64,000 bases of DNA, taken from positions 14,332 to 78,331 of the forward strand of contig JAVCCR010000014.1 in NCBI GenBank assembly GCA_030765485.1, written 5' to 3'. The notes under the pieces were generated by a model. That model was not told the DNA's origin, ran no database searches, and saw only the letters and a list, made by a program, of their open reading frames with translations. Below are positions 31,101 through 62,165 of the stretch, one piece after another; position 1 is the first letter of the stretch, and every line of letters starts with the position of its first letter. Both the position numbers and the translations under genes were made by a program. The stretch comes from Candidatus Gygaella obscura. GTDB lineage: Bacteria > Omnitrophota > Gorgyraeia > Gygaellales > Gygaellaceae.

Positions 31101-31638
31101 CAATCTTGTGTTTGTTTTAAATACGTTTAATGTAGAGAATTTACCTGATTTTATTGAGTTTGCAGCTAGGCTTGGTGTAGATAGCGTAGTATGCAATTAC
31201 ATGACGATTTATTCTCAGAGTCATTTAAAATCTTCTTGCTTTTTTAAGCAAGATATCACTAATTCTATGATAGAAAAAGCTAAAGCAACTGCTTTAAAGC
31301 ACAATCTAATTGTTAATTTACCAGCGATGTTTAATGAAAACAGTTATCCTCGGGTTAAATGTTCTGATCCCTGGGAATATATCTATATAGAGACTGAAGG
31401 GTCAGTTTTGCCTTGCTGTTTTGCTGGGTCACATATAAGTTATTTATATCGTGATGATTTTAAGGAGATTTGGAACGGGCAGGTTTATCAGGAATTAAGA
31501 CGTTCTTTAAATAACGGCGGTCAGGCCCTATGGTGCAAGCATTGTATTAAAAATAATGCTTCAAATGTAAATAATTTGCGTTCTCACGTAAGTTTTCGAG
31601 AAGATATACAGAAGAATATCTTAGAATTCAATAAATAA
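25147..31638 (+). CDS. 2163-aa multidomain fusion: GT2 – ~290-aa coiled coil – TM hairpin – GT2 – GT4 – radical SAM/SPASM-like – radical SAM/SPASM-like
   Basis: aa 1-250 GT2 ('VSIITVNFNG...DNGSSDGS...NNDT'). aa ~300-590 continuous heptad-rich K/E/L/S sequence. aa ~600-690 two hydrophobic helices. aa ~700-950 second GT2 ('SLVMPNYNG...VDDASKDGS...INNDIKL'). aa ~1010-1340 GT4 with 'GIKGKVLEAMAVGLPVVST'. aa ~1370-1760 rSAM 'CNSRCIMC' (29527-29550) + 'SGGEPFL'. aa ~1790-2163 rSAM 'CNANCVFC' (30694-30717) with C-terminal 'PCCFAG...WCKHC' Cys cluster. Confidence 0.85.
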   Translation: MKNRFPKVSIITVNFNGKKFLKNLLDGLFFLNYPKDKTEIIFIDNGSSDGSVAFVKNKYPKVKIIRNKLNNYCVGINLGIKASKAEFVALLNNDTKVDKDWLVELVSCIRTGKNIAAVGSKVLKYDGLIQTAGHYELPNYYWGERHSGKKSASLSKREQVDSLCGASVIYNRALIFKLGLFDEDFIMYGEDVDISYRLRSAGYRLLVEPKSIVYHTFHGTASVELSNFYIERNRLLFIAKHMPDRLPGALLGNGYFVTTKNQHNKSGIYEVLSIVLRKLIDNSSLEKVNYLMPQIFAELRKIIAYENDYLSNEINKLRDNLDKTYKTYKKIDKELFDKKDELARKDEQKQKLDRQIKEIRINDLANLKRINNQQNLLLKQQQKEIVSVKKDVSKLSDSVNDREKQIIKRDSEYSKLKESIESLRDSIRSKDSQSNQHLFSIKRLGEEQQTLNSQLEKKKSEIVAKDYEISKLKENLAHSRDILDLKEADLKEKSNYIDQFSDSLRNVNTQLEIRIEELSKQFAFIQEEYDKKLKELHDSNINTEKLKAEIAGLDSGLKDKRNQLIDKDKELKASIEQIVCLRNEIDCIYSSKGYRFILSPIWKTIFLFKKFFSSLRQLLLKVKQILTSLVLKPVALIKKIARIILLVFNRTFLAKLFWFGVSAVCSFFVLLLFLGLSAEYLLWNLLRPVLSRIKPKRNPIKVNDSVKISLVMPNYNGIDILKEALPTIFSIERFANGNDEVLIVDDASKDGSVKFIKENYPKIKLIRNYRNKGFGYTSNRAVKSAKHEVVVLINNDIKLTKDFLKHLVDSLKDKNVFSVTPKLYGWDEKTFAWGMHMGHFENGYIRLWNECETGNGDRINRPSPSLFAIGGAMVFRKSDFIWLKGFDSIYKPNCWEDIDISYRAWKRGLKVIYEPRSLLFHKARATLTYERPKEIKNELLFTWKNITDKNILLNHINLLPDNFYRYRMSFLKGFLWALLFLPRALLHRLMERPFIKQDDSLIINHCMNYYRNFRLRGFKHLLPQEKKTILMVTSFLPFPLNIGGRIRIYNLAKQLSKKYNVMLLSLIDKEEELNCVPELKKVFKEVFTVFPKSPLNLKLFPERYKFSYSQILIEKLIELNNEYAIDFIQIESNELLYLQPYIDYTPVVYTEHDCSSLFYKNSYYKRNGFLADFFDYLKRVRFHILALSKLKHIIVLSKEDRSILRSFLPEKKFSLIPTGVDLEHFKFSETIKSRGNRLIYVGHYPHYPNEDAVVHFVKKIFPLIRKHVPDIEFHIVGSGVTDAVSNLAHSKGVKVIGEVEDVYDYLRFADIFVNPIRISSGIKGKVLEAMAVGLPVVSTKIGSSGITALGGKEIILVNSNINFARQVVRLVKNSELRLKIAKDARLFVEHNYDWQRVYTMLDSFFEDIYTLSLPEERANMDLANLVNTLNENLQDSIDQGDISYDFQNGPKELHIELDYHCNSRCIMCDLWDYSKRNNSKEVLTKNDIKKLLDTSNKLEHIDTVVLSGGEPFLKNDLFDICRILLQKYPHLSLGILTNGIDTQRIIDISVRVKNELRPANFWLGTSLDGVGQVHDYVRGRKGAYDAVIATIAQCRKNNIEITATFTITAENFDCLLPAKKVADSCGIDFYIQFVVPKQERSTSVFKFSNKALSRIEKDLFELIRQELEKTGFKDQASASEIEKNPGLLAKIYYLSHLKKYQTDPKRYFRKCVAGSRFAMIDPLGRLYFCPGLKNAAIGNIKKEKFDDLWMSDKANNTRKFIYKQLCNCWLVCIVFPVIDKFLFEKEEDVKIANSKNSSILKVEDKRISFCNEHKSLQEYNRRVNKDEFDKGEIILKSTPRGIGLGVHWKCNANCVFCLGGHPKLFNMDTYRKFFEEKLFDILPRADYLNLCGFGELLLMPQCNELLTYLNNSLPHINKIITTNGSTITDEVIGYLTSGRYSLQVSMHASNQKLHNMITNLNNFDFIVGQIKKMLRQRKDKSSPSVNLVFVLNTFNVENLPDFIEFAARLGVDSVVCNYMTIYSQSHLKSSCFFKQDITNSMIEKAKATALKHNLIVNLPAMFNENSYPRVKCSDPWEYIYIETEGSVLPCCFAGSHISYLYRDDFKEIWNGQVYQELRRSLNNGGQALWCKHCIKNNASNVNNLRSHVSFREDIQKNILEFNK
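26044..26914 (+). other. Long predicted coiled-coil segment inside the giant fusion protein; candidate chain-length 'molecular ruler'
   Basis: ~290 aa of uninterrupted charged, heptad-like sequence ('SKLKESIESLRDSIRSKD...ISKLKENLAHSRDILDLKEADLKEK...') between two GT2 domains. Confidence 0.55.
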
Positions 31639-31653: not shown

Positions 31654-34356
31654 ATGAAAATTGCTTTAGTGCAGTGTCCTGGTTGGGGTAGAGATTGTCC
31701 GCCTTATGCAATGGTTTTATTAGGTGCAATTTTAAAAAAAGCAGGTCACAAAGTTGATTATCTTGATATCAATAATGCTCTTTTTTGCAGTGGACCTGAT
31801 AAATATAGAAAATTTTGGGATGATAAAGATTTATATAGTTTTTGGTCATCAAAAAAAATGGTTGATGAGTTCATAAAGGACAACAAAAGGATGCTTGATT
31901 ATCAGGTGGATAGGATTTTATCTTCTGGTGTAAAGATGGTAGGTTTTACAGTACAGTTTAGTTCTTTGATTCTTAGCCTTGAGTTGGCCAAACGTATAAA
32001 GCAGCAGGATAATAGCCGTATAATTGTTTTTGGCGGGCCGGATTGCTCAAGGGAGCTTCGTGGTTTGGAAATAGCCAGAAATAAGTTTGTGGATATAGTT
32101 TGTGTTGGGGAGGGGGAAGAGGTTATAGTTGATGTTGCTTCGCTTATAGAAGGGGAAAATCGATTAGAGTTTATAAAGGGAACTTTGATAAAAGCTAAGG
32201 ATTCTTTTATTGATTGCGGTGATAGGAAGGTTATCAAGGGTTTAGACGATTTGCCTTTTCCGGATTATAAGGCGTTTGAGGAGGATATATCCTGTCGGCT
32301 TTATGCCCAGCCCGAACGTTTAGATATTTTTGATAGTCGGGGATGTCCGAGGCAGTGTCATTTCTGCAGCGAGTGGCAGTATTGGAAGAATTTCCGTTTT
32401 ATGAGCGGAGATAAGATGTTTTCTGAGGTTTGTAATGGGGTGAAGAATTTTCCTGGTGTAGATTATTTTTATTTTATCGGATCTTTGTTAAATGGTAACC
32501 TAAAGGCGCTTTCGCGTTTTTGTGATTTAGTGATTGAACACGATTTAAATATAAGATGGGCCGGACAGGTAATTATAAGGCCGGAAATGGACAAGGAGCT
32601 GCTTCAGAAGATGAAGTTAGCTGGGTGTGAGTGGTTAAGCTATGGAGTGGAAAGCGGGTCACAGAGGGTTTTAAATAAGATGAATAAAAGGTTCAGCCTT
32701 CAAGTAGCCGAAGAGGTAATTAGGAATACTCATTTGGCAGGGATTAATCAACAGGTTAATTTTATGTTTGGTTTTCCTACGGAAACAGAAGTTGAAGCAG
32801 ATGAAACAATTAATCTCTTGAAGAAAATAAGGAAAAATATCGATTCTGTATTGGCTAGCCAGTCTTTTTGTGTTATTGATAAAGGCACATATATTTATGA
32901 ACACCCAGAGGAGTTTTCACTTATCGATAAGGAACACCATCTTTTTTGGGAAAGCAAAGACAACACCTATCTTATTAGGTTTAATAGATATGAGAAGTTT
33001 TGTAAAGAAGCCTTGGCTTTGGGCCTGCCTGAAACCTCAGGACTTTTGAGAAATAAACCAGATAAATGGAGTCTTTTGGGCGAGTACCATTTATACAAAA
33101 AAGATTATGAAAATGCTATAGTTTGTTTTAAGAAAGCTTTTGACAAAGAATTTTTAAAGGAAAACATCCAAGAAAAAATAAATAAGTGCCGTGATTTATT
33201 AAGTCAGGAAACACTAGTTATCGAAAAGCCGAGTTTAGTTTCGTTTGAAGTTAAAAAAGATCAAATATTGCAGGATCATTCTTTTTTAAGCGATAGGTAT
33301 AAAGATATCGCGTGTTATCTTCTTAACCACGGCTTGGATTTAAAGCTGAAGAATTTTCTTTTGGTAGAGAAGGAAAAGATGCAGAGAAAAGAGGTTTTAT
33401 CCGGCTATCCTTATTGGTGTGTAATTGACCCAGCGAATTACTGCAACCTTAAGTGCCCATTTTGTCCTACCGGTCAAGGACGAAACTCTCGTTTTAGATC
33501 GATCTTATCACTAGATAATTATAAACGAATCATTGAAGAGATCGGACCTTATCTTATACATATTGATTTTTGTAATTGGGGAGAACCTTTTTTAAACCCG
33601 AATATTTTCGAGATGATCAGGCTTGCTAAAGAATATGATATTGATACAAAGGTTGATTCAAATTTTAATTTACTTACAGAAAATGATTTGGATAGGTTGA
33701 TAGCATCAGGTCTTGATAAGGTTATAGTATCGATTGATGGAGTTAGCGAAGAAACTTATTCAAAATATAGAGTAGGCGGTAATTATTATAAGGCAATGGA
33801 TAATATGAAGAAGCTGATTGAGAAAAAAAGACGCTTGAATAGTTTAAATCCGCAGGTTCATTGGCAATTTCTGGTATTTAGGCATAATGAACATGAGATA
33901 GAACAGGCCAAAAGAATAGCCGATAATCTGGGCGTTGATCATCTAGGCATAACTAAAGCATTTATTGGTAACAAAGATTGGTTCCCTGAGAATAAAGAAT
34001 ATAGTAATTATCACGGTGATACTTTAAAGGATGTTGATAGCGCTAAGGATACAGCTTTGTTATTTAAGGATAGTAGTTCAAAGATTTGTTATTGGCCGTG
34101 GGAGGCGATAGCTATTAATCCTAATGGTTCAGTATCAGTCTGTTGCTCGGTAGAGGAAGAAAAAGATGATTTTGGCAATATTTTTAATCAGCCTTTTAAT
34201 AAGCTATGGAATAACGATAAATACGTTTCTGCAAGAAGATTTTTGGTAAACAGAGGCAATAATGGACATAAACATTCCGAGGATAATATATGTTTTAGGT
34301 GTAAACACATAGGAATGATTAATATCAGTTTAGCTTCTATGAGCAGTTTTCAATAA
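31654..34356 (+). CDS. Two-module radical SAM fusion: B12-binding (class B) radical SAM + TPR-like linker + radical SAM/SPASM-like
   Basis: N-terminal 'MKIALVQCPGWGRDCPPYAMVLLGAILKKAGHKVDYLDIN' B12-binding-like domain, then 'RGCPRQCHFCSEW' (CxxxCxxC). Second module 'NYCNLKCPFCPTGQG' with C-terminal 'CCSVEEE...CFRCKH' cluster. Confidence 0.8.
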   Translation: MKIALVQCPGWGRDCPPYAMVLLGAILKKAGHKVDYLDINNALFCSGPDKYRKFWDDKDLYSFWSSKKMVDEFIKDNKRMLDYQVDRILSSGVKMVGFTVQFSSLILSLELAKRIKQQDNSRIIVFGGPDCSRELRGLEIARNKFVDIVCVGEGEEVIVDVASLIEGENRLEFIKGTLIKAKDSFIDCGDRKVIKGLDDLPFPDYKAFEEDISCRLYAQPERLDIFDSRGCPRQCHFCSEWQYWKNFRFMSGDKMFSEVCNGVKNFPGVDYFYFIGSLLNGNLKALSRFCDLVIEHDLNIRWAGQVIIRPEMDKELLQKMKLAGCEWLSYGVESGSQRVLNKMNKRFSLQVAEEVIRNTHLAGINQQVNFMFGFPTETEVEADETINLLKKIRKNIDSVLASQSFCVIDKGTYIYEHPEEFSLIDKEHHLFWESKDNTYLIRFNRYEKFCKEALALGLPETSGLLRNKPDKWSLLGEYHLYKKDYENAIVCFKKAFDKEFLKENIQEKINKCRDLLSQETLVIEKPSLVSFEVKKDQILQDHSFLSDRYKDIACYLLNHGLDLKLKNFLLVEKEKMQRKEVLSGYPYWCVIDPANYCNLKCPFCPTGQGRNSRFRSILSLDNYKRIIEEIGPYLIHIDFCNWGEPFLNPNIFEMIRLAKEYDIDTKVDSNFNLLTENDLDRLIASGLDKVIVSIDGVSEETYSKYRVGGNYYKAMDNMKKLIEKKRRLNSLNPQVHWQFLVFRHNEHEIEQAKRIADNLGVDHLGITKAFIGNKDWFPENKEYSNYHGDTLKDVDSAKDTALLFKDSSSKICYWPWEAIAINPNGSVSVCCSVEEEKDDFGNIFNQPFNKLWNNDKYVSARRFLVNRGNNGHKHSEDNICFRCKHIGMINISLASMSSFQ

Positions 34357-34364
34357 TAGGTAAT

Positions 34365-37310
34365 ATGGAAAAAGAAAAAAGAATAAAGTTTGTTTGGAAT
34401 CTGCATTATGCCTGTAATTACAGGTGTAGTTACTGTAATTTTAATGGTAGCTGGGATGAGCTTTCAGTAAAAAATAAGAAAATTAGCAAGAATGATTGGA
34501 TTAAGGCATGGGATAGGATTTATGATTTATATGGAAGCGTTGATATTCATCTTGTTGGTGGAGAGCCTTGCATATATCCTGATTTTACTGAGATTGTTTG
34601 TAGAATCTCAAAGAAGCATTTTTTAGGTCTTACTACTAATCTTTCAGTTGATTTTAAAAGGTTTGCTGACAGTGTTTCGCCGAAAAGATTTGAGTTTGGT
34701 ATAGGGGCTAGTTTTCATCCGCAGTACGTTAAATTTGAAGACTTTCTAAGTAAGGTGATTGAATTGAAGAATAAAGGGTTTAAAATCTGGGTAAATTATG
34801 TTGCCTATCCGCCCCAGATTGATAAAATGAATTTTTTTAAAAGCACACTTCAAAAACACGGTATTCCTTTTGTCGTACAGCCGTTTCGTGGGACATATAA
34901 TGATAAAATTTACCCTGAGGCTTATACCGATAGTGATCGGTCTATTATTAAGGATATTGCCGGTACGGATTCAAGTATTCAGCAAGACATGCAGTATCAG
35001 TTGGATCGCAAGAATACAAAAGGAGTGCTTTGTAGGGCAGGGCAGATCTTAGCACATATAGAACCCGATGGCACAGTTAAAAGATGTGGTTTGATTGAAA
35101 AGCCTATTGGTAATATATTCGATGCAAACTTTCGATTATTAGATAAACCTTTACCTTGCACTGAAGAACATTGTCCTTGTGATTATATATATTTGGTAGA
35201 TTCGAATGAAAAATTAAATGAGTATTCTGCGAAAAGACAAGATAATATCTCGGAAAAAGAAGCAAGCGCACATGTGGTTGTTGATTTGATTGAAGAGGCT
35301 GAATTTTGTCTGTTTAAGCTGGAGGATTTTGATACCGCAGAGGCATTGATAAAAAAGGCACTTGCAAAAGATAAAGATAATATTTGGGGGCTAAGGGTTT
35401 TAGCTAACATTTTTAGAAGAAAAGCTGAAAGTAATAATAATGATAATCTTTTGCTTCAAAAGGCAAGAGAAGTTATTGATGATGCGTTATTTATAAGCAA
35501 AGGGGATTCATGTGTGCTTGCTGAATCAGCGCGGATTTATCTTGCGCAGAATCAATATAGAAAGGCAGATTTTGAAATTGTTAAGGCGATTAAAAAAGAT
35601 TCGGAAAATACATATTTTCAGGAGGTGAATCAGAAGATAAAAGATACGGCCTTGTCTTCTATTGATAAGAATTCTTTATCCGTTTCTAATGATCATTTAG
35701 ATATGATGCTTGTTTTGACTCCGGGGTGGGGTAGGGAATCGGCTCCGTTTGCTCTGGCGTCTTTGACAGGTCTTTTGAGGAAGCATAATTTTATAGTTAA
35801 ATCGTTTGATATTAATAATTTTATTTTTCATAGACTTTCTTCTGATAAAAGCAGTGTACAGTTGTGGGATTGGGAGCAGTGCGGTTTTTGGGACGATCGG
35901 CCGTCTGTCGAAAATTTTATCAATAAAAATTCTATTTTAATAGATTCTATAGTTGATTCTATCCTTAAGCAAAAACCAGAGGTTATCGGTTTCTCGGTAT
36001 ATCTGACAACTAAAATAATGAGTCTTGAGTTTGCAAGACGCATAAAAGCAAAAAATCCTAATATTTTAATAGTGTTTGGTGGTTCGCAGTGTCGCCGAAA
36101 AGAAAACTGGAGAGAGCTTATTGAAAATGATTTTGTCGATGCAATTATTTTAGATGATGCAGAAGCAACAATTATCGATTTTTTGAATATTTTTAAGAAA
36201 GAAAAAAAGATTAAATATTGTCCTGGTCTTATTTATCGTGATGGTACTGATATTATAGATTGTGGTGATAGGTCTGTTGTTGATTTAGATGATTTGCCTT
36301 TTGCCGATTTTAGTGATTTTGATTTTAAAAGCTATAAATGCCCGCATATTATCAAAATTGCTTTTAGCCGTGGTTGTACAGAAGGTTGCGCTTATTGTAG
36401 TGCTCGTACAGTATGGCGGGGTTTTAGGACAATGAATGGAGAGAGGATTTTTAATGAGATAAAGTTTCAGGTCGAGAATTTTCATAAGAGAATGGATTAT
36501 TCAATGATCCCTCATTTAATTTTCCTCGATTCTTTAATCAACGCAAATATGCTTGTATTGAAGGATTGGCTTATGCGGTTAGTGGAAGTACGCAAGGATA
36601 AAAATGGTCCGCTTTTTAATTTTATCTGGAGAGCGCAAGCGATTATACGACCGGAAATGAATGAGGAGATTATATCCTTGATCAAGGATTCAGGGTGTGT
36701 AGAGATAAATTATGGGATAGAAAGCGGTTCTGCAAAGGTCTTAAAAGATATGCGAAAAAGATATACGCCTGAGATTGCAGAAAAGGTAGTTCGTTGTATT
36801 TACAAATATGGTATACCGGCAAAAGCTAATTTTATGTTTGGTTTTCCTACCGAAACAGAAGAAGATTTTAAAGGTACACTAAATTTTATTCAAAGGAATG
36901 CCCGATTTATGACAGAGGTTTATCCTAGCAGGACATTTTGTGCTATTGAGAGATTCACTTATCTGTTTGAAAATAGGGAAAAATTCGGAATTTTACCGCA
37001 AAAGCAGGAAAACCATCTTTTTTGGCAATCGCAGAACGGAAAGAATAATTATCTTGTAAGAGTGGAAAGATATTTTGCCTTCTGTAAGCTACTTGCAAAT
37101 CTTGATCATAAGCCTTTGGTGACGGGGGTTGATAATATTGAACGGGACAAGTGGCTTTCTCTCGGACAGTATTATCAGTATGAACAGGATTTTACCAAGG
37201 CGTTAGAGTGTTATGATAATTATATTAAGTTAAACGGAGTTATTGATTCAGTGGAAGAGTCTATGAATATATGCAAAGCCTATTTATCCAAAAGAGAGAC
37301 GAAAATCTAA
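34365..37310 (+). CDS. Two-module radical SAM fusion: radical SAM module + TPR region + B12-binding (class B) radical SAM
   Basis: N-terminal 'NLHYACNYRCSYCNF' + 'HLVGGEPCIYP' + C-terminal 'CRAG...RCG...PCTEEHCPCD'. After the TPR region: 'MMLVLTPGWGRESAPFALASLTGLLRKHNF' (B12-like) and 'RGCTEGCAYCSART'. Confidence 0.8.
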   Translation: MEKEKRIKFVWNLHYACNYRCSYCNFNGSWDELSVKNKKISKNDWIKAWDRIYDLYGSVDIHLVGGEPCIYPDFTEIVCRISKKHFLGLTTNLSVDFKRFADSVSPKRFEFGIGASFHPQYVKFEDFLSKVIELKNKGFKIWVNYVAYPPQIDKMNFFKSTLQKHGIPFVVQPFRGTYNDKIYPEAYTDSDRSIIKDIAGTDSSIQQDMQYQLDRKNTKGVLCRAGQILAHIEPDGTVKRCGLIEKPIGNIFDANFRLLDKPLPCTEEHCPCDYIYLVDSNEKLNEYSAKRQDNISEKEASAHVVVDLIEEAEFCLFKLEDFDTAEALIKKALAKDKDNIWGLRVLANIFRRKAESNNNDNLLLQKAREVIDDALFISKGDSCVLAESARIYLAQNQYRKADFEIVKAIKKDSENTYFQEVNQKIKDTALSSIDKNSLSVSNDHLDMMLVLTPGWGRESAPFALASLTGLLRKHNFIVKSFDINNFIFHRLSSDKSSVQLWDWEQCGFWDDRPSVENFINKNSILIDSIVDSILKQKPEVIGFSVYLTTKIMSLEFARRIKAKNPNILIVFGGSQCRRKENWRELIENDFVDAIILDDAEATIIDFLNIFKKEKKIKYCPGLIYRDGTDIIDCGDRSVVDLDDLPFADFSDFDFKSYKCPHIIKIAFSRGCTEGCAYCSARTVWRGFRTMNGERIFNEIKFQVENFHKRMDYSMIPHLIFLDSLINANMLVLKDWLMRLVEVRKDKNGPLFNFIWRAQAIIRPEMNEEIISLIKDSGCVEINYGIESGSAKVLKDMRKRYTPEIAEKVVRCIYKYGIPAKANFMFGFPTETEEDFKGTLNFIQRNARFMTEVYPSRTFCAIERFTYLFENREKFGILPQKQENHLFWQSQNGKNNYLVRVERYFAFCKLLANLDHKPLVTGVDNIERDKWLSLGQYYQYEQDFTKALECYDNYIKLNGVIDSVEESMNICKAYLSKRETKI

Positions 37311-37315
37311 TTTTT

Positions 37316-37996
37316 ATGGATAGATATGATAATGTTTCAATAATTATAGCATTTAAGGAAGAAAACGATTCCATTAAACAGGTTGTAAATGGTCTTGATG
37401 GTTTTAATTCCGAAAAGATTTTAATTGGAAAAGGTTTTTCTAAAGAAACACTTATGTTTTTGCAATCAAAAGGTGCAAAAGTTCATATTGTTGATGACCG
37501 GGGAAAAGGGCATGCTCTTCGCATTGGAGCAAAGATTGCTACTCGTGATATTCTGCTTTTTATTGACGCTGATGGTTCGCATATTCCTAGCGAAATCCCT
37601 TCTCTTGTAAGCCCGATTCTGGAGAATAAGGTTTCTTTGGTGGTTGCTTCTCGAGTATTAGGCCATAGCGAAGAGTATCATAATAATACAATTGAGAAAA
37701 TAAGACTTTTTGGTAACGTGATTGCAACAGGTATTATTAATTTTAGATGGAGTATCAGGTTGACTGATTCACAAAATGGTTTTCGGGCGATTAAAAGAAA
37801 TGTTTTTCAGAAACTTGATTTAAGAGAAGACGAATTTGCCATTGAGCAGGAAATGATTATGAAGTGCTTACGGATGAAAGAAAAGGTTTTGGAAGTGCCT
37901 AGCCATGAATTGCGTAGGGTATCAGGTTGTTCGAAGTTGAATACAATCACTATGTTACCCAAGTACATTTTTTGCCTGATTAAAAACATCATATGA
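37316..37996 (+). CDS. GtrB/Dpm1-like family-2 glycosyltransferase (polyprenol-phosphate sugar synthase-like)
   Basis: 'NVSIIIAF', 'ILLFIDADGSHIPSEI', 'ASRV'. The ORF-track start at 37271 overlaps the upstream gene. The ATG at 37316, just after that stop, is preferred, but the start is uncertain. Confidence 0.7.
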   Translation: MDRYDNVSIIIAFKEENDSIKQVVNGLDGFNSEKILIGKGFSKETLMFLQSKGAKVHIVDDRGKGHALRIGAKIATRDILLFIDADGSHIPSEIPSLVSPILENKVSLVVASRVLGHSEEYHNNTIEKIRLFGNVIATGIINFRWSIRLTDSQNGFRAIKRNVFQKLDLREDEFAIEQEMIMKCLRMKEKVLEVPSHELRRVSGCSKLNTITMLPKYIFCLIKNII

Positions 37997-39066
37997 TACG
38001 GACTATTCATTTATTAAAAAGCATAACTCTTTCTAATTTTTTAAGATTAAAATACCCTTATAAACTTACTTATGCCGTAACTTACAGGTGTAATTTGAAA
38101 TGTAAGATGTGCGCTATATGGAAAAAAGATTTATCTCAAGAACTATCTCTTGATGAAATTAACCGGTTTTTTAACAAATCGGGATTTTTTTCATGGATTG
38201 ATCTTACTGGAGGAGAGATTTTTTTAAGGGAAGATATATTTGATATATTAAGCATAATTTTAAATAATTGTTCTCGATTGAAGATAATCCATTTTCCAAC
38301 TAATGGACAGTTTCCCGAAGAAGCTCTGAAGTTTTTAATGATTGTTAATAAAACTAAAGGTGTTGTTCCCGTTGTGACTGTGAGTATTGATGGTGAGGAA
38401 GCTTTAAGCGATGACATAAGAGGGGTTAAAGGAGCTTGGAGAAACGCAGTAAACACTTTCAAAATTATCAAAGAATCAGGTTGTTCTTTTTGTTCGTTTG
38501 GCATTACTATCTCCCGCTATAATGTTCATTATTTAAGCCTTGAGCGTATTATATCTCAGGTTGTTAAAATTTATCCTGATATAGATAAGTCTGATTTTCA
38601 TTTTAACATTGCCCATTCATCTGAACATTATTACAGCAATCCATCAGAGGAAAATATGTTTAATGATTCTTATAGAGTTAAATTGTCTAATTTGTTACTT
38701 TTGAATAACAAAAACAGAATAAAAGGATTTTTACAAAATAATTATCTTTCTGGAATTAACAAGATTCTTAGAAATGGTGAATTTATGCCTTGCCAATCTC
38801 TTTCTGGTACATGTTTTTTAAATCCAGAGGGGTATTTGTATCCTTGTTCTATATATAATAGAAGATTATCACATATTCAAGAGATTGATTATGATGTGAG
38901 GCAGTATTGGGAAAATAAAGATTTAATTTGCTTATATAGGGATTTACAGTCTGGTAAGTGCCCCAAGTGCTGGACACCATGTGAAGCTTTCCCTAGCATA
39001 TTAGGATCTATATTAAGAAAACCGAGTAATATTAAAAAAAATATATTATGCAGACAAAGCGAATAG
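37993..39066 (+). CDS. Radical SAM/SPASM-like protein
   Basis: 'YRCNLKCKMCAIW', 'LTGGEIFL', C-terminal 'CQSLSGTCFLNPEGYLYPCS...CPKCWTPCEAF'. Paralogous to the first rSAM module of the giant fusion. Confidence 0.8.
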   Translation: MIRTIHLLKSITLSNFLRLKYPYKLTYAVTYRCNLKCKMCAIWKKDLSQELSLDEINRFFNKSGFFSWIDLTGGEIFLREDIFDILSIILNNCSRLKIIHFPTNGQFPEEALKFLMIVNKTKGVVPVVTVSIDGEEALSDDIRGVKGAWRNAVNTFKIIKESGCSFCSFGITISRYNVHYLSLERIISQVVKIYPDIDKSDFHFNIAHSSEHYYSNPSEENMFNDSYRVKLSNLLLLNNKNRIKGFLQNNYLSGINKILRNGEFMPCQSLSGTCFLNPEGYLYPCSIYNRRLSHIQEIDYDVRQYWENKDLICLYRDLQSGKCPKCWTPCEAFPSILGSILRKPSNIKKNILCRQSE

Positions 39067-40721
39067 CTAAATTTTATCCTTTAATACTATTTATTTTATT
39101 TCTCTCTGTTTATTTAACTACTTTTACTCAGACCCACCGTTGTTTTAACCAGGATGGTCTTGAGAATATGCAGTTTATCTCCAGCGAAGACTTTCAAATT
39201 TTCAATGCGCGTGATATAGGTTATCGGATTACCGGTAGGTTTATATATGATGTATTTAAATTGTTAGGATGGCAGGGTTCAGCAATGATTCCACTGCAAT
39301 CCTTGAGTGCTTTTTTTGGGGCTATAGCAGTGGTATGTATTTACCTTATTATATTTAAAATAATTAATAACTATAGTTTAGCTTTTATAATTTCATTATT
39401 TTTTGGTTTTTCTCACTCATTCTGGTTTTTCAGTACTGAAGCAACAGGCAGGATATACTGTCTATTCTTTGGTTTGCTGTCATTGTTATTTTTGTTTTAT
39501 AGGTTTAATTTTAAACAGAGCTATATTTATTTGATGGTTTTTTCTTTCTCCGTATCTTCTGTTATAGATTCATCTTCGCTTTTGTTTTTGCCTTTGTTAA
39601 TCTTAGGAATAATTCTGATTAACGAAAATAGAAAACAGAGCTATAAGGACGCATTAATATTTGCTGCTTTTTCTCTTGCGATAATGGCGGTTTTTCATCT
39701 AGCGTTATATACTATTAAATATAGCTCTATATCTTTAAGTGGGTTGTTTGGTTTTATTTTTAATAAGTCTCCCTCTAAAGGATTAAGTTTTTCAAAGATG
39801 TTTTTTACTGCATGGGAATCACTCATCGCTAATGGCAACATTCATTCTGATTCGATAAGATTAATGTTTTTTCCTGGAAATATTTTAGAGCTTCATAGAG
39901 GTTTTATTGTTTTTTTCTCAGCTTTAGCAGGATTTATTATTATTAGTTTAGTGTTTTTAAGAAAAAAGGTAAGTTTTTTTCATCGTAAGATTATTATATG
40001 GATGTTACTTTTTTTATTTCTGCCCTTACCTTTTTTTGCTTATCAAGAGGCAAACGCTTTAGAATATTATATTATCAGTTTGGTGCCTTTTTGGATAATC
40101 GTTGCTGTAGTTTGCTACTATTTAATTAAAAGGTTTAGGGTAATCAACTATTTACTGCCTGTTGTTTTGGTTGTTTTTGTTTTTAATAATTTTTTATTCA
40201 GTATTTTTCCTCGCACAGACGCTAGAAATAGCTTTTACTACCCGCATTATAAATATCTAAAAAAAGATTTTAATTCTCAGGAGTTAACTATTGTGTTTAC
40301 ATTTGATTACATTTTTAGTCTTAATATGCGAATAATTGATTCGAGGCTAAAAACAAACATTCACAAACAAGCTATTTTCATCGATAATTACAGCAAGATA
40401 AACGATAAATACTATGAATATTTGCTTAAAGAAGTCGCTGCGTACGATAAGGTAAAGATTGTTTTTCTTTTATGCTCGCCAGTGAAATCGCCAGATAGAA
40501 TAAAGGTAATTAATGATCAAATAAATAGATACAAGTATATTTACTCAGATTTTATTTTTGATGTTGTTTTATTGAATAGGTGTCCGTGGATAAGCGAATA
40601 TATTGGAAGATACGTCGACTTTCAAGAATTTCTATTAGGGATTGGTAATTTAGGATTTAAACCATTGTTTATGAGTGAGGGTCCATTTGAAGATATTGTT
40701 AGTATAGAGTTCAGAAAGTAA
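39048..40721 (+). CDS. Polytopic membrane protein, GT-C-fold glycosyltransferase-like (ArnT/PMT/GtrC-like)
   Basis: ≥10 TM segments over ~380 aa, then a ~170-aa soluble C-terminal domain. Sits next to a GtrB-like GT2. The fold assignment is an inference. Confidence 0.45.
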   Translation: MQTKRIAKFYPLILFILFLSVYLTTFTQTHRCFNQDGLENMQFISSEDFQIFNARDIGYRITGRFIYDVFKLLGWQGSAMIPLQSLSAFFGAIAVVCIYLIIFKIINNYSLAFIISLFFGFSHSFWFFSTEATGRIYCLFFGLLSLLFLFYRFNFKQSYIYLMVFSFSVSSVIDSSSLLFLPLLILGIILINENRKQSYKDALIFAAFSLAIMAVFHLALYTIKYSSISLSGLFGFIFNKSPSKGLSFSKMFFTAWESLIANGNIHSDSIRLMFFPGNILELHRGFIVFFSALAGFIIISLVFLRKKVSFFHRKIIIWMLLFLFLPLPFFAYQEANALEYYIISLVPFWIIVAVVCYYLIKRFRVINYLLPVVLVVFVFNNFLFSIFPRTDARNSFYYPHYKYLKKDFNSQELTIVFTFDYIFSLNMRIIDSRLKTNIHKQAIFIDNYSKINDKYYEYLLKEVAAYDKVKIVFLLCSPVKSPDRIKVINDQINRYKYIYSDFIFDVVLLNRCPWISEYIGRYVDFQEFLLGIGNLGFKPLFMSEGPFEDIVSIEFRK

Positions 40722-40751
40722 AGCCGATATTTCAGAAGAATCAGTAAAGGG

Positions 40752-43700
40752 ATGATTAAAAAGATGAATTTAGTAAAGTATGCCGAGATTATTGTGAATA
40801 ATCAAAAGATTAATGAATCGGAATTTCGAAAAGGCAGAATAACGCTTAAATCTTATCCGCCAAATGTCTTTATGCAGCTCGATGGACCTTGTAACCATAA
40901 TTGCATATTTTGTTCTCGCCCTGAAAAATATGATTATTTTAATTTAGAAGAATTTAAGAAGCGTTTTGTTGATATTATGCCAGTTTTTTTAAATGCAAAA
41001 ATGATTTATCTTACAGGCGCAGGAGAATTTTTAATGCTTCCTGATAGTCTAGATATAATTAAATTCTTTGATAATAATTTTCCCGCCTCTGGCAAAAGCT
41101 TTGCTACAAATGCAACATGTTTTAATAACTATATTTTTAATTATTTAGAAAGCATCAAGAGTAATTTTAGTATTCAGGTGTCTTTGCATGCTAGTAACGC
41201 TGAGTTACATAAAAAACTAGTTGGTAGATATGATTTTGATCAAACTATTCAAAATTTAAGTAGATTATTGGCTATTTCGGAAAATAACCGTAATTTGGAT
41301 GTTTATGCCATGTTTGTTTTAAATACGCTTAATATTTCGGATTTGCCTGAATTTGTAAAGCTGTGTAGTTCTATGGGTATAAGAAAAGTGTGTTGTAATT
41401 ATAATTCTGTTTATAGATTGGATCAGAAAAAACTTTCTTTATTTTTTAATCAGGCAAAAGCTAACGATGTTCTTAATTCAGTGCGTTCTTTAGCTTCAGA
41501 TCTTTCTATTGAGATTAATTTACCTCCTTTATTTGCGAAAGATAATTCCTATTACAAATTCTGTAAGGATTATTGCAGTGATCCTTGGTATCAGATAATG
41601 CTTAATTTCAAGGGAGAAGTTATGCCTTGCTGTTTATTTGAGGGGGTTGCTCCGGGGAATATACTGGAACAAGGGTTTAAAAAGATTTGGAATGGGGAAG
41701 TTTATAAAGCGTTGAGGGAATCAATACTCAATAAGAAAAAAGCTATTTATTGTAATTATTGCATAGAAAACAATCCGGAATCTGTGAATCATATCAAATC
41801 TCATTTGATAATTCGAGGAAAGAACAAACAAGAACTTCAGGAATTTCTTAAGCCAGAGTTTGATACGAGAGTTACTATTGATGAAAATAAAATGATTCAA
41901 TTTGTTTGGCGTTTGAACTACGAATGCAATTTTAATTGTCCTTATTGTTCAGTGATGTATTGGGGCGAAGAAAAAATTACCAGAAAAGACAAAACAGTGT
42001 TTTTATCAGTCGATGAATGGATTGAGCATTGGGAAAAGATATACGATATATACGGAAGTGTGGAGATTCATATTGTAGGTGGAGAGCCAACTATTTATCC
42101 AGGGTTTTTTAAATTGGTGGAAAGATTATCTAAAAAGCATTATTTCGGTTTTGATACTAATCTTTCTGCTGATTTTACAGATTTTATAAAAACTATTCCT
42201 CCTGAAAGAGTTAGTTTTGGTATTGGGGCAAGTTTTCATCCTACGCAGACCAAATTCGAAGATTTCATAAATAAGGTTGATAGGTTAGCAAGGGCAAATT
42301 TTAAGATATGGATAAATTATGTAGCATATCCTGAGCAATTAAACGAAATAGCTTATTATAAAAACGAGGTAGAAAAAAGAGGGTATCATTTTGTGATGCA
42401 ACCTTTTTGCGGTAAATACAAAGATAAAATCTATCCTAAGGAATATATAGATAATGAAAAAAACATAATGAGAGGTCTTGCAAAAGGTAATAGCGTTCTA
42501 GAAGAGAATATGCAGTATCAGCTTGAGCAGAAGATAGTAAAAGGTAAGCTTTGTTATGCAGGTATGAAGTTTGCTTTTATACATGCAGACGGTACTATAA
42601 AAAGATGCGGCGAGGGGCCAAGTCCTGCTATTGGTAATTTTTTCGATAAAGAGTTTAGGCTTTTTGATAAGCCGTTGCCCTGTGATTGTGATACATGCTA
42701 TTGTGAGTTTAAATGGTTGGTGGAGAATGAAAGAAAGACCACGCAGCAAGAAGAAAATAAGAGCTTAATTGTAAAGCAAGTCAAGAATAGTGATTTTGGA
42801 GATAAATTCAAGAAGATCAATAGATTAATTATGGATGATGAGTTAGATGAGTCAAAAAAAATTGCTAGAGAGGTTTTGGATTGTGATAAAGACAACGGTA
42901 ATGGTTTTAGTGTTATGGCAAAAATATACCGTATGAAAGCACAGTCGATAGATTTGGTTTCGGCTAGGGAAGATTATGCTTATTTAGCCAAGTCTAATAT
43001 AAAACGGGCATTGGAATATGACCCTGATGATTTATCTGCACAGTTGGAAGCTATTCGTATTTTTATTATCGATAAGGACGTAATTGCAGCAAAAAAGATT
43101 TTTGATAATATAATGATTAAATATCCAGAATCTGAAGAGGCACATGCACTGGTTAAAAGAATAGAGCATTTAAATAGAGAACTTCATAGAAGTCATCAAG
43201 CTGTTGAGATTTTTCGTAAAGAAAAGAATATTTTTTCAAGAATAAAATCAAAGGTAATAGCAAAAGATATGAGATTTTCTTATCGAGTTATTTTCGATTG
43301 GGATATGCATTATGATTGTAATTATAGTTGCTCATATTGTTACTATAAAAATAAATGGAATGAGTTATCGTTAAAAAACATATATCCTGGTAACAGTAAA
43401 CTAATACGGATATGGAGTAATATTTATGATACTTTCGGTAAGTGTTTTATAAGACTTAATGGTAGAGAACCAAGTGTGTACCCTGATTTTTTCAATCTTA
43501 TAAAAGGTCTTTCTTTAAAACATACATTGGAATTAAATACGAATCTGTTTTTTGATTTTGAAAGATTGATAGAGACGGTTGCTCCTGAAAACGTAAGTAT
43601 TAAAGCAATTTTCCATAAAGAAAATGTGAGTTTAGAATCATTTTTGAATAAGGCAAGTTATCTTAACAGGCATGGTTTCCAGGTAAGCGTTGTTTGTTTG

Positions 43701-44147
43701 GCTCATCCGGATAATTTAAATGAACTTTATAGGATAAAACAAGCCGTAGAAGATATTAATCTTACTTTTCTGATTGAACCGTTTCAAGGAGTATATAAAG
43801 AATTAGAATATCCCCATGGGTATTCTTTTGAACAAATGAGAATTATTTCGGATATAGTAGCTTTTTCACCTGTGAATAAACTTATTTTCGAGCCAATTCT
43901 TAGGAAAGAAAAGATAATAAATAATGATAGGCGGTTATGCAGGATGGGCCAGCTTTATGTAAAGGTTTTTTCTGATGGTGAGATATATCGCTGTAGAGAT
44001 AATTTATCAGAGAAAATCGGTAATCTTTACAATGATGATAATCTTTTTGTTTGGAACGAACCTAGATATTGTGACAAGAAAAGCTGTTCTTATTGGAATG
44101 CAATGATTGTAGGTAAAGAAAAGAAATGGATTCGATATTGGAGATAA
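40752..44147 (+). CDS. Three-module radical SAM fusion (rSAM/SPASM-like + rSAM module + TPR + rSAM module)
   Basis: Module 1 'GPCNHNCIFCSRPE...SLHASN...CSDPW...PCCLFEG...CNYCIENN', paralogous to the giant fusion's C-terminal domain. Module 2 'RLNYECNFNCPYCSV...HIVGGEPTIYP...GIGASFHP...CGEG...PCDCDTCYC', ~60% identical to the N-terminal module of 34365. Module 3 'DMHYDCNYSCSYCYY...'. Confidence 0.8.
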   Translation: MIKKMNLVKYAEIIVNNQKINESEFRKGRITLKSYPPNVFMQLDGPCNHNCIFCSRPEKYDYFNLEEFKKRFVDIMPVFLNAKMIYLTGAGEFLMLPDSLDIIKFFDNNFPASGKSFATNATCFNNYIFNYLESIKSNFSIQVSLHASNAELHKKLVGRYDFDQTIQNLSRLLAISENNRNLDVYAMFVLNTLNISDLPEFVKLCSSMGIRKVCCNYNSVYRLDQKKLSLFFNQAKANDVLNSVRSLASDLSIEINLPPLFAKDNSYYKFCKDYCSDPWYQIMLNFKGEVMPCCLFEGVAPGNILEQGFKKIWNGEVYKALRESILNKKKAIYCNYCIENNPESVNHIKSHLIIRGKNKQELQEFLKPEFDTRVTIDENKMIQFVWRLNYECNFNCPYCSVMYWGEEKITRKDKTVFLSVDEWIEHWEKIYDIYGSVEIHIVGGEPTIYPGFFKLVERLSKKHYFGFDTNLSADFTDFIKTIPPERVSFGIGASFHPTQTKFEDFINKVDRLARANFKIWINYVAYPEQLNEIAYYKNEVEKRGYHFVMQPFCGKYKDKIYPKEYIDNEKNIMRGLAKGNSVLEENMQYQLEQKIVKGKLCYAGMKFAFIHADGTIKRCGEGPSPAIGNFFDKEFRLFDKPLPCDCDTCYCEFKWLVENERKTTQQEENKSLIVKQVKNSDFGDKFKKINRLIMDDELDESKKIAREVLDCDKDNGNGFSVMAKIYRMKAQSIDLVSAREDYAYLAKSNIKRALEYDPDDLSAQLEAIRIFIIDKDVIAAKKIFDNIMIKYPESEEAHALVKRIEHLNRELHRSHQAVEIFRKEKNIFSRIKSKVIAKDMRFSYRVIFDWDMHYDCNYSCSYCYYKNKWNELSLKNIYPGNSKLIRIWSNIYDTFGKCFIRLNGREPSVYPDFFNLIKGLSLKHTLELNTNLFFDFERLIETVAPENVSIKAIFHKENVSLESFLNKASYLNRHGFQVSVVCLAHPDNLNELYRIKQAVEDINLTFLIEPFQGVYKELEYPHGYSFEQMRIISDIVAFSPVNKLIFEPILRKEKIINNDRRLCRMGQLYVKVFSDGEIYRCRDNLSEKIGNLYNDDNLFVWNEPRYCDKKSCSYWNAMIVGKEKKWIRYWR

Positions 44148-45745
44148 AAACTGATAGTTCTAGGGTATTTTTGTATAGAAGAAATGTTTTTTTGCCTATA
44201 TTATTTGTTTTTTTAATCGTAGTTTTACATGCTGCTGTTAATTATTTTATTCTTGTCAGAAGTAGGTTTTGCTTATTAGGCGATTCAGCATTCCATTATT
44301 CGGAATCGTTTGTTTTTTTTAATCAGTTAAAACAATTCTTTAAAGCAGGCGATTTTATAGATTTTTTTAGAGATTATACAGCGATTGGTAGTAATTATCG
44401 TACACCCTTTTTAATGCTTGCAACAATCCCGTTTTATTTTATTTTTGGCGTTAGTCAGACCACTGCAATAATGTCTAATATGTTATTTTTTTTAGTGTTA
44501 GTTTCATCTGTTTACGGAATTGCCAGAATTTTATATAACCAAAAAACAGCTATTTTAGCAAGTTTAATTGTTTCGGTATTGCCGGGAATTTTTTCTCAAT
44601 CGAGAATATTCTTGCAAGATTTAGCTTTATCCGCAATGGTTGCATTATCTTTTTATCTTTTAATAAAATCAGACAATTTTAAGAATTTCAGGATTAGTTT
44701 AATTTTTGGTGTTATTTTTGGTTTAGGGTTACTTACAAAATGGTCTTATCCAATTTTTATGATTTTACCAATGCTGTTTATGGTTGATTGGAGAAGGGTA
44801 GTTGTAAAGAATCTATTTTTAGGGTTATCGATTGGGTTGTTAATTGCCTCGAGCTGGTATATACCAAATTTATCCAATATAATCTTAAGATTGCCAAAAT
44901 CGGCTTTTTCTATTTTAAACGTCAACAACGATAGATGGTATTATTATTTAGAGACTCTTTATGACTATCAGTTGTTACCTGTTTATTTTGCATTGCTTAT
45001 ATCTGGTATCACGTTTTTAGTTTTAAAAAAGGAATTTATTTTCCCATTGTTTGTGATTTTTCCAATTGTTTTGTTTTCTTTTTCTCACAATAAAGATGCA
45101 CGTTTTATTCTGCCAGTTTTTTTCGTCATTGCGATTATAATTGCCCGTTTTATAGTTTGGTTTGATAGAGAGCAGATATTGGTTAAGATTATAATTATTT
45201 TTTCATTAGTGCAGTTTATAGCTATTTGTTTTTTTCCAACCAAGACGCCTTGGATTAAGAAAATTATAAATGTTAATCGTGTGTATCCAGATAATATGCA
45301 GGGCCTTTATTTTGCTACAGATAGAGGAGATTGGAAGACAACACAGATTTTTGAAACGTTATCAGTGCACCTAAGTGATGATGCAGATAAAAAATATCAG
45401 GTTTTATCTATTCCCGCTTTGCCTGGTTTGCATTCACCGTTAATTATAGCGTCAGCAAAGGAGGCTTTGTCTGTTGAATTTATTTGTCCTGCTGAGTTTG
45501 ATCAGAGCTTAATAGATCAAGAAATAGATTTTGATAAAATTATTCATGATTCAGATTTTGTCATTACAAAAACCGGATATATGGGTATTTCATTCATAAA
45601 AGGCTTTTTGAATGAAACGAATAAGGCTTTTCTAAGGCACAAGCACGAATTTATAGTTTTAAAAACATTCAGCTTAGAACATGTTCCAGGAAGCGATATT
45701 GATGATTCTGTAGTATATCTTTATAAAAGGATTGATAAAAATTGA
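44126..45745 (+). CDS. Polytopic membrane protein, GT-C-like glycosyltransferase candidate (second copy)
   Basis: ~11 TM segments + ~170-aa C-terminal soluble domain. Same architecture as 39048. Confidence 0.45.
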   Translation: MDSILEIKTDSSRVFLYRRNVFLPILFVFLIVVLHAAVNYFILVRSRFCLLGDSAFHYSESFVFFNQLKQFFKAGDFIDFFRDYTAIGSNYRTPFLMLATIPFYFIFGVSQTTAIMSNMLFFLVLVSSVYGIARILYNQKTAILASLIVSVLPGIFSQSRIFLQDLALSAMVALSFYLLIKSDNFKNFRISLIFGVIFGLGLLTKWSYPIFMILPMLFMVDWRRVVVKNLFLGLSIGLLIASSWYIPNLSNIILRLPKSAFSILNVNNDRWYYYLETLYDYQLLPVYFALLISGITFLVLKKEFIFPLFVIFPIVLFSFSHNKDARFILPVFFVIAIIIARFIVWFDREQILVKIIIIFSLVQFIAICFFPTKTPWIKKIINVNRVYPDNMQGLYFATDRGDWKTTQIFETLSVHLSDDADKKYQVLSIPALPGLHSPLIIASAKEALSVEFICPAEFDQSLIDQEIDFDKIIHDSDFVITKTGYMGISFIKGFLNETNKAFLRHKHEFIVLKTFSLEHVPGSDIDDSVVYLYKRIDKN

Positions 45746-47788: not shown

Positions 47789-47790
47789 AG

Positions 47791-55042: not shown

Positions 55043-55043
55043 A

Positions 55044-56030: not shown

Positions 56031-56042
56031 TAATATAATTAA

Positions 56043-56960: not shown

Positions 56961-56962
56961 GG

Positions 56963-59592: not shown

Positions 59593-59613
59593 AAATATAT
59601 TTTGTGGTATAAT
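59585..59613 (+). promoter_or_regulatory. Extended -10 sigma70 promoter for the small peptide gene (TTGTAT-17-TGgTATAAT)
   Basis: -35 at 59585-59590, TG at 59605-59606, perfect TATAAT at 59608-59613. Followed by AGGAGG (59632-59637) 7 nt before the ATG at 59645. Confidence 0.4.
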
Positions 59614-59644
59614 TAATTATTAATTGGATTAAGGAGGAGTGATT

Positions 59645-59881: not shown

Positions 59882-59961
59882 TCTATCTATAATATAATGT
59901 GGTTTCTATTCAATTAATAAACTAATAATATTATAACATTAGGTAAATATATTTGCTTTTT

Positions 59962-60915: not shown

Positions 60916-60922
60916 GTAAACA

Positions 60923-62146: not shown

Positions 62147-62165
62147 AGCATTTTCGTGGTTTTAA

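Follow-up and report, generated by a model that had tools for sequence, protein, structure and literature searches.

The 64,000 nucleotides of DNA from Candidatus Gygaella obscura, an uncultured member of the Omnitrophota, analysed here (the window; all coordinates are window positions) form one long gene array that is read from the plus strand throughout, and the central part of this array encodes a series of radical S-adenosylmethionine (rSAM) modules. Ten rSAM domains, every one with an intact CX3CX2C motif, are present between 25147 and 44147 and are distributed over a giant glycosyltransferase (GT)-rSAM protein (motif at residues 1461 and 1850) and the proteins g31654 (231 and 597), g34365 (17 and 671), g37993 (33) and g40752 (47, 392 and 856); the two domains of the giant protein are thus followed by eight in the subsequent genes, and four more rSAM domains occur further downstream. 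The modules belong to about six old paralogous families: A, of rSAM-SPASM type; B, of about 285 amino acids (aa) with a cysteine-rich auxiliary region; C, rSAM modules with B12-binding domain; and D, E and F, further rSAM-SPASM types.

The giant protein (25147-31638; 2163 aa) has the order GT2, coiled-coil-like stretch, hydrophobic segment, GT2, GT4, rSAM, rSAM-SPASM. Its glycosyltransferase part (25147-29463; Pfam GT2 at aa 6-220 and aa 709-919, GT4 at aa 1045-1398) matched the solved structures of chondroitin synthase, Dol-P-Man synthase and PimA; it is followed by module D1 (29464-30546; CNSRCIMC at aa 1461), with orthologues at the same position in the giant proteins of two related loci (L004 and L005), and by module A1 (30574-31638; CNANCVFC at aa 1850), whose clade received a bootstrap value of 97. 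In g31654, module C3 (31654-33033; clade bootstrap 100) is connected to module E (33361-34356; nearest solved sequences BtrN and BlsE) by a TPR linker (33034-33360; Pfam TPR_2/TPR_1 at aa 471-496, below the curated cut-offs) that is weakly homologous to the TPR tail at the C-terminus of g34365. The latter protein consists of module B1 (34365-35234; with the cysteine-rich, C-terminal auxiliary-cluster region), a TPR linker (35235-35696; Pfam TPR_14/TPR_19 at aa 316-349) whose start is homologous to the g40752 linker after B2, and module C6 with the C-terminal TPR tail (35697-37310; clade bootstrap 100). The single module of g37993, D7 (37993-39066), showed a weak SPASM match and has an orthologue in the metagenome locus L001 (342 bits). 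Protein g40752 comprises A2 (40752-41861; rSAM-SPASM, clade bootstrap 95), B2 (41877-42761; clade bootstrap 100), a TPR linker (42762-43268; Pfam TPR_19 at aa 746-804, below cut-off) and B3 (43269-44147), the most divergent B copy, which grouped with the C-terminal module of a 628-aa protein of L005 (L005_628aa_C) with a bootstrap value of only 49. The identical database protein P0001 is annotated with 1127 aa, its start being placed four codons past the first ATG, from which g40752 would count 1131 aa (40752-40763).

The domain assignments are based on Pfam. The Radical_SAM family (PF04055) scored 45-125 bits with the five proteins (gathering cut-off 29.5); in the case of g40752 only two stretches were listed (one at aa 392-529), one of the three modules being below the per-stretch threshold. 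SPASM (PF13186) exceeded its cut-off in the giant protein (two stretches), g31654 (aa 812-884) and g40752 (aa 275-337), while g37993 remained below it (16.7 versus 21.5 bits). Family B had no PF13186 match; its predicted auxiliary-cluster region is marked by the invariant cysteines C223, C241, C265 and C270 and by C272, the last being present in at least 90% of the sequences, and a fold search placed the family near SkfB, BlsE and MoaA. The C modules have the layout of class B (cobalamin-dependent) rSAM enzymes, with an N-terminal B12-binding domain followed by the rSAM core: PF02310 scored 37.6 bits in g31654 (cut-off 32.1) and 30.8 bits, just under the cut-off, in g34365, both proteins being also matched by Radical_SAM, and the nearest solved sequence is the methylase MgmA (9ccb). 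The nearest solved relatives of module E (BtrN, BlsE, DesII) act on sugars.

The modules were compared with each other by BLASTP, with other rSAM genes of the window (10544 and RlmN at 17675) for comparison. B1 (g34365 aa 1-290) and B2 (g40752 aa 376-670) were 49% identical over 291 aa (E 5e-106), and B3 (g40752 aa 840-1131) was 36% identical to B1 (E 2e-55) and 33% to B2 (E 6e-47). A2 (g40752 aa 1-370) and A1 (aa 1810-2163 of the giant protein) shared 34% identity (E 8e-74), and C3 (g31654 aa 1-460) and C6 (g34365 aa 445-930) 36% (E 3e-106). The weakest pair was D7 and D1 (aa 1440-1800 of the giant protein; 23%, E 7e-16), which were nonetheless reciprocal best matches in the window, while family E is represented by a single copy (g31654 aa 570-900). 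Within families B, A and C the scores amounted to 150-315 bits, in contrast to at most 89 bits between families or against 10544 and RlmN; the modules are therefore much closer to one another than to other rSAM proteins.

A sequence-only reading of this stretch had proposed that radical-SAM modules were duplicated and shuffled into two- and three-domain fusion proteins. Its paralogy claims were borne out: the N-terminal module of g34365 and the middle and C-terminal modules of g40752 are related at 33-49% identity (E 5e-106 to 6e-47), the N-terminal module of g40752 matches the last domain of the giant protein, and g37993 matches the first rSAM domain of the latter, if only at the low identity given above. 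All listed open reading frames (ORFs) were present and the domain orders were as described, with an additional TPR stretch detected by Pfam between the two halves of g31654; and the modules did not prove to be as distant from each other as from unrelated rSAM families, which had been named as the outcome that would speak against the proposal. The identity of the first two modules had been put too high (about 60%, compared with 49% measured over the whole module and 55% over the core), and the four quoted motif blocks, among them H(L/I)VGGEP.IYP and FGIGASFHP, are found in B1 and B2 and are missing in B3, which reads FDW, RLNGREP, IKAIFHK and VVCLAHP at these places. B3 has retained CX3CX2C, but contains GRE for the near-universal GGE and FHK for FHP, lacks the last auxiliary cysteine and forms the longest branch in the family tree. 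With high confidence, the modules can be regarded as true paralogues that are joined in differing fusion orders by TPR linkers.

The age of the duplications was assessed from neighbour-joining trees (100 bootstraps, short modules) with related loci gathered via homologues of g40752. The orthologous modules of other genomes were 51-61% (B1, B2, C3, C6) or 45-49% (A1, A2) identical to those of the window, compared with 34-49% between the paralogues within the genome; the margin was small for B2 (51% to the L001 orthologue, 49% to B1). Bootstrap values were 100 for B1 and for B2, 93 for B1 and B2 together, 97, 95 and 91 for A1, A2 and A3, and 100 each for C3 and C6, while the window paralogues paired together in none of the 100 replicates. 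Based on the closer relationship of the orthologues, the bootstrap values of the subfamilies and the lack of any replicate pairing the window copies, the duplications can with high confidence be placed before the split of the compared genomes. The fusions themselves are shared over a considerable distance: a metagenome locus (L001/L002) that is about 43-57% identical (43% for the triple-rSAM protein) has the same gene order with nearly the same fusions, i.e. giant GT-rSAM, B12-rSAM with rSAM-SPASM (871 aa), rSAM with B12-rSAM (894 aa), GT2, rSAM-SPASM, membrane protein, triple rSAM (1126 aa), a gene without recognised family and rSAM-SPASM.

The sequence-only reading had called this modular evolution recent, in which case the similarity of the modules would go back to duplication and recombination within this genome in recent times. 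B1 and B2 are the closest and youngest pair, and at the DNA level only their core could be aligned (69% over 452 nt; 34492-34936 versus 42013-42457); their clade comprises no lineages other than those of the window, L001, P0004 and P0005. In addition, the two B12-rSAM modules share a stretch in which 34 of 35 nt are identical (97%; 32757-32791 versus 36827-36861) and which encodes the common motif NFMFGFPTETE; this identity may be due to a codon bias common to both copies of a conserved motif, or else to gene conversion over a short tract. However, B1 and B2 each grouped with their own orthologues elsewhere with full bootstrap support, the other paralogue pairs were only 23-36% identical without alignable DNA beyond the C3/C6 stretch, and the fusion genes are conserved in a locus as distant as L001/L002. 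A recent origin was therefore rejected as highly improbable, being contradicted by both the DNA comparison and the phylogeny: each window paralogue grouped with foreign orthologues (bootstrap 91-100; 49 for B3) and never with the copy from its own genome.

The rSAM domains of the related sequences were typed against the window modules, and the packaging of the latter proved to vary between lineages. A fusion of the order B1-C6-A2 is present in P0004 and P0005, and one of the order C6-A2 in P0007 and L005; L005 also encodes C3-E-E', a B module lacking CX3CX2C joined to B3, and a free-standing A3. The locus L004 contains C-B-A3, B-B-B, TPR-B and five free B genes, L003 contains B-B-B-B and C-A3, and the modules of L007 are nearly all free-standing. 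In the 628-aa protein of L005 (12727-14613), the B module of the N-terminal half has lost GGE and all three cysteines of CX3CX2C (the corresponding stretch reads KHNHSCQYG); it looks like a pseudo-rSAM domain that is retained as the partner of an intact B3. The window protein with the order A2-B2-TPR-B3 was collinear in BLASTP with its orthologue P0002 (A-B-A) up to approximately residue 770, i.e. into the linker, beyond which P0002 has an A3 module and the window protein additional TPR sequence and B3. The earlier statement that the same module types recur in different orders with TPR linkers is thus supported by fusion partners that vary between lineages and by this exchange of the C-terminal part. 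Since most fusions join modules that are adjacent to each other elsewhere, these patterns suggest a dominant process in which neighbouring genes are fused or split at TPR and other linkers and a module is occasionally replaced. The genome investigated here is a heavily fused one, with two rSAM domains joined to GT2-GT2-GT4.

The array is embedded in a polysaccharide locus. Whereas the window up to about 15.6 kb is occupied by housekeeping genes, Pfam identified, beginning at about 16.1 kb, genes for ManC (16137), an O-antigen-ligase-like protein (19093), an FAD oxidoreductase (20240), a GT2 (21576), a Wzm-like ABC-2 membrane permease (22611-23432; ABC2_membrane, E 6e-19) and, directly upstream of the giant gene, a Wzt-like ABC ATPase (23433-25157; ABC_tran and Wzt_C, E 3e-33); the same stretch contains the rSAM gene RlmN (17675), which probably has no connection with the array. 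The Wzt-like protein carries a tandem pair of C-terminal, carbohydrate-binding Wzt_C stretches instead of one, and therefore recognition of a specific, possibly modified, glycan terminus is suggested. Between the rSAM genes there are a small GT2 (g37271; 37271-37996), which resembles polyprenyl-phosphate sugar synthases and whose sole match among solved structures was Dol-P-Man synthase (5mlz, E 4e-10), and a polytopic membrane protein (g39048; 39048-40721), whose position is kept in L001/L002 and which had no match in Pfam, relaxed scans included, or in NCBIfam. The array is followed by a membrane glycosyltransferase of the PMT_2/GT-C family (44126-45745; Pfam PMT_2, E 6e-13), a family that also flanks the arrays of L058, L083, L032 and L035, by a GDSL/SGNH hydrolase-like protein (45742-46791) that recurs within related arrays, and by a pair conserved in related loci that consists of the 334-aa protein g46784 and the rSAM-SPASM module F (47791; pair 46784-48849). 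The g46784-type gene (46784-47788; also in L001, L005, L039, L046, L051 and L068) is usually positioned directly upstream of an F-type rSAM-SPASM gene; within its product, the motif W(G/H)QWWK(V/I)SF is repeated, and no family match was obtained, relaxed Pfam scans included. Further downstream are a GT2 (48853), a GT4 (49748), a GDSL-TPR gene and a second ligase-like gene (both between the GT4 and WecG) and WecG/TagA (54323). Wzm and Wzt are thus present together with cytoplasmic GTs and sugar-nucleotide supply (ManC) in the same array, as in O-antigen-type ABC-transporter loci. Rfam and tRNA scans of the window gave no matches.

Outside the window, the module families occur jointly, as a common toolkit, in Omnitrophota, Elusimicrobiota and some Planctomycetota. 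Among 1.84 billion proteins, the number of cluster representatives matched by the family B profile was 925 with E <= 1e-30 and rose to 4409 with E <= 1e-10, many being multi-domain proteins of 480-1623 aa. In species-representative genomes, at least 202 matches were confirmed by tblastn, and the best 80 of these belonged almost all to Omnitrophota and Elusimicrobiota (including gut and rumen Endomicrobiaceae), with some metagenome-assembled genomes of Planctomycetales. Among the loci with B modules that measured at least 15 kb (46 in total), 42 also contained C, 30 A, 24 E, 17 F and 15 D modules, and up to about ten B modules were present per array. Of the protein clusters among the 53 homologues found, more than 30 contained both GT and Radical_SAM Pfam domains, and every organism name given by a source was Omnitrophota/Omnitrophica. 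The minimal operon, from Endomicrobiaceae (L083), has the order Wzm-Wzt-(DUF5989)-B-C-D-GT2, and PMT_2 and GT2 genes are close to it; its 50-aa DUF5989 ORF (9830-9982 of that locus), between the Wzt ATPase and the first rSAM (B) gene, was the sole small ORF seen beside a B gene and is a candidate for a substrate or a membrane subunit. One Elusimicrobia array is flanked by PMT_2, GT2-methyltransferase, YdjC and O-methyltransferase genes, and PMT_2, GDSL and FAD oxidoreductase genes recur with the arrays of Planctomycetales and Omnitrophota. Single B genes occurred amid sulfotransferases, a GT2-sulfatase fusion and a Wzx-like flippase, elsewhere amid GT9, GT2, GT4 and GH5 genes, and also near Polysacc_synt genes.

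According to this setting, the array can on balance be considered the tailoring arm of a Wzm/Wzt surface-glycan pathway, an explanation that would cover both its evolution and its function; a glycan is fairly likely to be the substrate, while confidence in any specific chemistry is low. The tailoring machinery envisaged by the sequence-only reading remains plausible and fits the Wzm/Wzt polysaccharide setting, a context that had been absent from it. The most likely function would be the radical tailoring of a lipid-linked glycan by C-methylation and by oxidation or epimerisation, the proposed chemistry being taken from the known activities of these enzyme classes. The GTs would build a polyprenyl-linked glycan or a polyprenyl-phosphate sugar on the membrane's cytoplasmic face, and each rSAM module would act on a defined sugar carbon by hydrogen-atom abstraction; the B12-binding C modules would then C-methylate in a methylcobalamin-dependent reaction, and the twitch/SPASM modules would oxidise, epimerise, dehydrate or decarboxylate, with the TPR segments holding the enzymes together. 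Wzm/Wzt would export the product, to which the GtrB-like GT2 and the GT-C membrane proteins might add further decoration: the combination of g37271, g39048 and PMT_2 suggests a periplasmic decoration from polyprenyl-phosphate sugars, and since the rSAM genes are interleaved with these three, lipid-linked sugars are plausible substrates.

Several observations weigh against this explanation. None of the ten modules, nor any of the downstream genes or those without family, reached a curated NCBIfam cut-off, and therefore no chemistry can be transferred by homology. The C modules scored highest with models of C-methyltransferases for ribosomally synthesised and post-translationally modified peptides (RiPPs), the best match being TIGR03975 with 130-140 bits (130 for C3 of g31654; cut-off 282), and remained below all characterised methyltransferase equivalogs (TIGR03975, PhpK, HpnR, KedN5). 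The fold search with family B gave a generic result, in which the peptide maturase SkfB ranked first and the sugar enzyme BlsE second, and the search of the g40752 sequence against solved structures yielded no match at E <= 1e-3. A glycan-type gene detectable by BLAST was located within 20 kb in only 23 of 44 related loci, many loci being wholly filled with rSAM genes. As regards the evolutionary part, the phylogeny depends on neighbour-joining trees of short modules, with a weak orthology of B3 (bootstrap 49), and the sequence deviations of B3 indicate that its activity may be altered, reduced or impaired.

Among the known systems, the ABC-transporter-dependent O-antigen assembly of Escherichia coli O9a (WbdA/WbdD) and Klebsiella O12 (WbbB) corresponds to the general layout: it also employs Wzm, a Wzt with C-terminal carbohydrate-binding domains and a multi-GT protein of very large size, in which a long segment of putative coiled-coil character may be a further common trait, and ManC and the WecG/TagA-type and O-antigen-ligase-like genes of the window add to this resemblance. 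In the window protein, the coiled-coil character was read off the sequence, Pfam giving only a weak match to a coiled-coil family (ATG16, 18 bits); the segment in question is a K/E/Q/L-rich stretch of about 320 residues after the first GT2 (approximately aa 300-620; window positions 26044-27250 cover approximately aa 300-700), followed by the hydrophobic segment, and would recall the molecular-ruler coiled coils of WbdD/WbbB. In contrast, the O9a/O12-type systems tailor or terminate the glycan with SAM methyltransferase/kinase or Kdo-transferase domains, whereas in the window two rSAM domains are fused to the GT protein. The rSAM enzymes known from sugar biosynthesis (BtrN, BlsE, DesII, AprD4, GenK/GenD1-type) share the twitch/SPASM and B12 types with the window and act on carbohydrate carbons, but they are single proteins that convert small molecules in secondary-metabolite clusters, whereas the window contains an array in a polysaccharide export locus, and the sequence identity to such enzymes is 11-18%, no family threshold being reached. 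For the B modules, NF038073 (STM4011 family) was the best NCBIfam model at near full length, yet scored only 100.4 bits with B1, 87.4 with B2 and 54.1 with B3 compared with a cut-off of 200, which makes the B modules a sister group at best. To our knowledge, no function has been assigned to the STM4011 family, and the title and abstract of the single paper found on STM4011 contained nothing on function.

The best analogy for many radical enzymes that edit one polymer would be the maturation of the proteusin polytheonamide, in which several B12-rSAM C-methyltransferases and an rSAM epimerase act repeatedly on one polymer; several B12-rSAM and auxiliary-cluster rSAM proteins are encoded together there, as in the window. 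By extension of this analogy, we tentatively suggest that the arrays might be the polysaccharide counterpart of proteusin maturation: site-specific radical enzymes, docked via TPR segments onto a polymerising GT, would act on unactivated carbons of the growing lipid-linked glycan and edit them by C-methylation, epimerisation or deoxygenation/oxidation, the number of B modules (one to about ten) would set the number of positions edited, and the products would be surface glycans of undescribed chemistry in Omnitrophota, Elusimicrobiota and Planctomycetota.

The proteusin substrate is a ribosomal peptide with a leader, and the array might instead mature a RiPP-like peptide or protein that is subsequently glycosylated by the GTs, ligase-like genes and PMT_2. 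The ranking of RiPP C-methyltransferases (TIGR03975, ApyD) among the matches of the B12 modules and the matches of several SPASM modules to peptide-maturase models point in this direction, although all these scores were far under the family cut-offs; TPR domains can also bind peptides, and the Wzy_C and PMT_2 families include protein O-glycosylating enzymes. Neither a precursor nor a RiPP recognition element (RRE) was found, however, and the partners are GTs and Wzm/Wzt: between 25147 and 48849 the genes overlap or are separated by gaps of at most 31 nt that leave no small ORF, the arrays of L003 and L004 contain no called gene of less than 268 aa, and Pfam scans gave no PqqD/RRE domain, for which, with CX3CX2C starting 17-47 residues into each module, there would be no room (about 90 aa). 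Since, moreover, the locus lacks a protease or exporter of RiPP type, its transporter being Wzm/Wzt with Wzt_C, and rSAM domains are fused straight to GTs, a ribosomal substrate appears unlikely. A modification of lipids, i.e. methylation, cyclisation or C-C coupling of a polyprenyl carrier, a glycolipid anchor or membrane-spanning/branched lipids, has precedents in Tes, GrsA/B, HpnP/HpnR and the ladderane enzymes. The B12 modules matched HpnJ, HpnR and a ladderane-lipid B12-rSAM model weakly, as did module E and the downstream g60923 with Tes, and Omnitrophota and Planctomycetota have been discussed as possible producers of unusual lipids (PMC11868695). These scores were no better than those with many other rSAM families, neither the window nor the related loci examined yielded genes of lipid synthesis, and the conserved neighbours are GTs and Wzm/Wzt; the lead of a lipid synthase received no specific support, and we consider it quite improbable.

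Still less probable, with only a very slight chance of being correct, is the construction or modification of a cofactor or tetrapyrrole, as proposed for the rSAM suites of group VI nitrogenase paralogues in groundwater Elusimicrobia, where up to 13 rSAM genes, some of them B12-fused, are located beside NifHDK paralogues (Meheust et al., 10.1101/765248). The resemblance consists in the many rSAM genes with B12 fusions, in NirJ/AhbD-type models among the weak matches and in the occurrence of family B in Elusimicrobia genomes with such nitrogenase-linked suites (GWA2_69_24); however, the published suites may belong to other module families. The glycan locus of the window and the Elusimicrobia loci L058, L062 and L082 contain no NifH/D/K-like gene, and the flanks of the latter three consist of PMT_2, GT2, YdjC, methyltransferases, sulfotransferases and a Wzx-like flippase, so that the nitrogenase-paralogue lead did not fit the loci examined.

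Two further gene groups of the window lie outside the glycan locus. Downstream of it, a second, distinct set (55035-62894) comprises a weak transglutaminase-like protein (55035), an rSAM-SPASM protein (56043), a 150-aa S24/S26-peptidase-like protein (56963), a 748-aa B12-rSAM protein (57346) with KedN5 as the nearest family, a P-loop protein (59953) that matched HprK-related kinase and ScmC weakly, the rSAM protein g60923 (60923) and a PP-loop ATPase (62166); the rSAM genes of this set had no counterpart among 81 related loci, and the set possibly represents a cassette of its own for peptide maturation. A Fur gene in the upstream part (7187-11335) precedes a Gly/Arg-rich ORF of 120 aa, two ORFs of about 120 aa each (8046-8423 and 8448-8813), two NTPases of ParA/MinD type that contain 4Fe-4S ferredoxin inserts, and an rSAM protein of 263 aa; this looks like an Fe-S-related cluster unconnected with the glycan locus.

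For radical SAM enzymes, the tailoring of small-molecule sugars and of peptides is established. In the literature searched, we found no description of an rSAM array in ABC-transporter glycan pathways or of a tailoring of surface polysaccharides by rSAM enzymes; a 2026 preprint on Omnitrophota notes only the co-occurrence of GT1 and radical-SAM domains in long proteins. An rSAM array in a polysaccharide assembly line is thus new relative to the searchable literature and could prove to be a new form of glycan editing at the polymer level. The locus also shows clearly how nature can package one set of modules either in free genes or in two-, three- or four-domain fusions, and the array is useful for studying the origin of multi-enzyme proteins in the Omnitrophota, a phylum noted for giant proteins. 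If surface-glycan tailoring is the function and the substrate is a glycan, the array would represent a new class of glycan modification, possibly acting at the polymer level, and would give a role to a large uncharacterised rSAM family (approximately 925 representatives at E <= 1e-30), for which the Wzm-Wzt-B-C-D-GT2 operon of Endomicrobiaceae would be a compact test system; rSAM domains are physically fused here to a polymerising GT, and the module families recur with Wzm/Wzt and GTs in three poorly known phyla.

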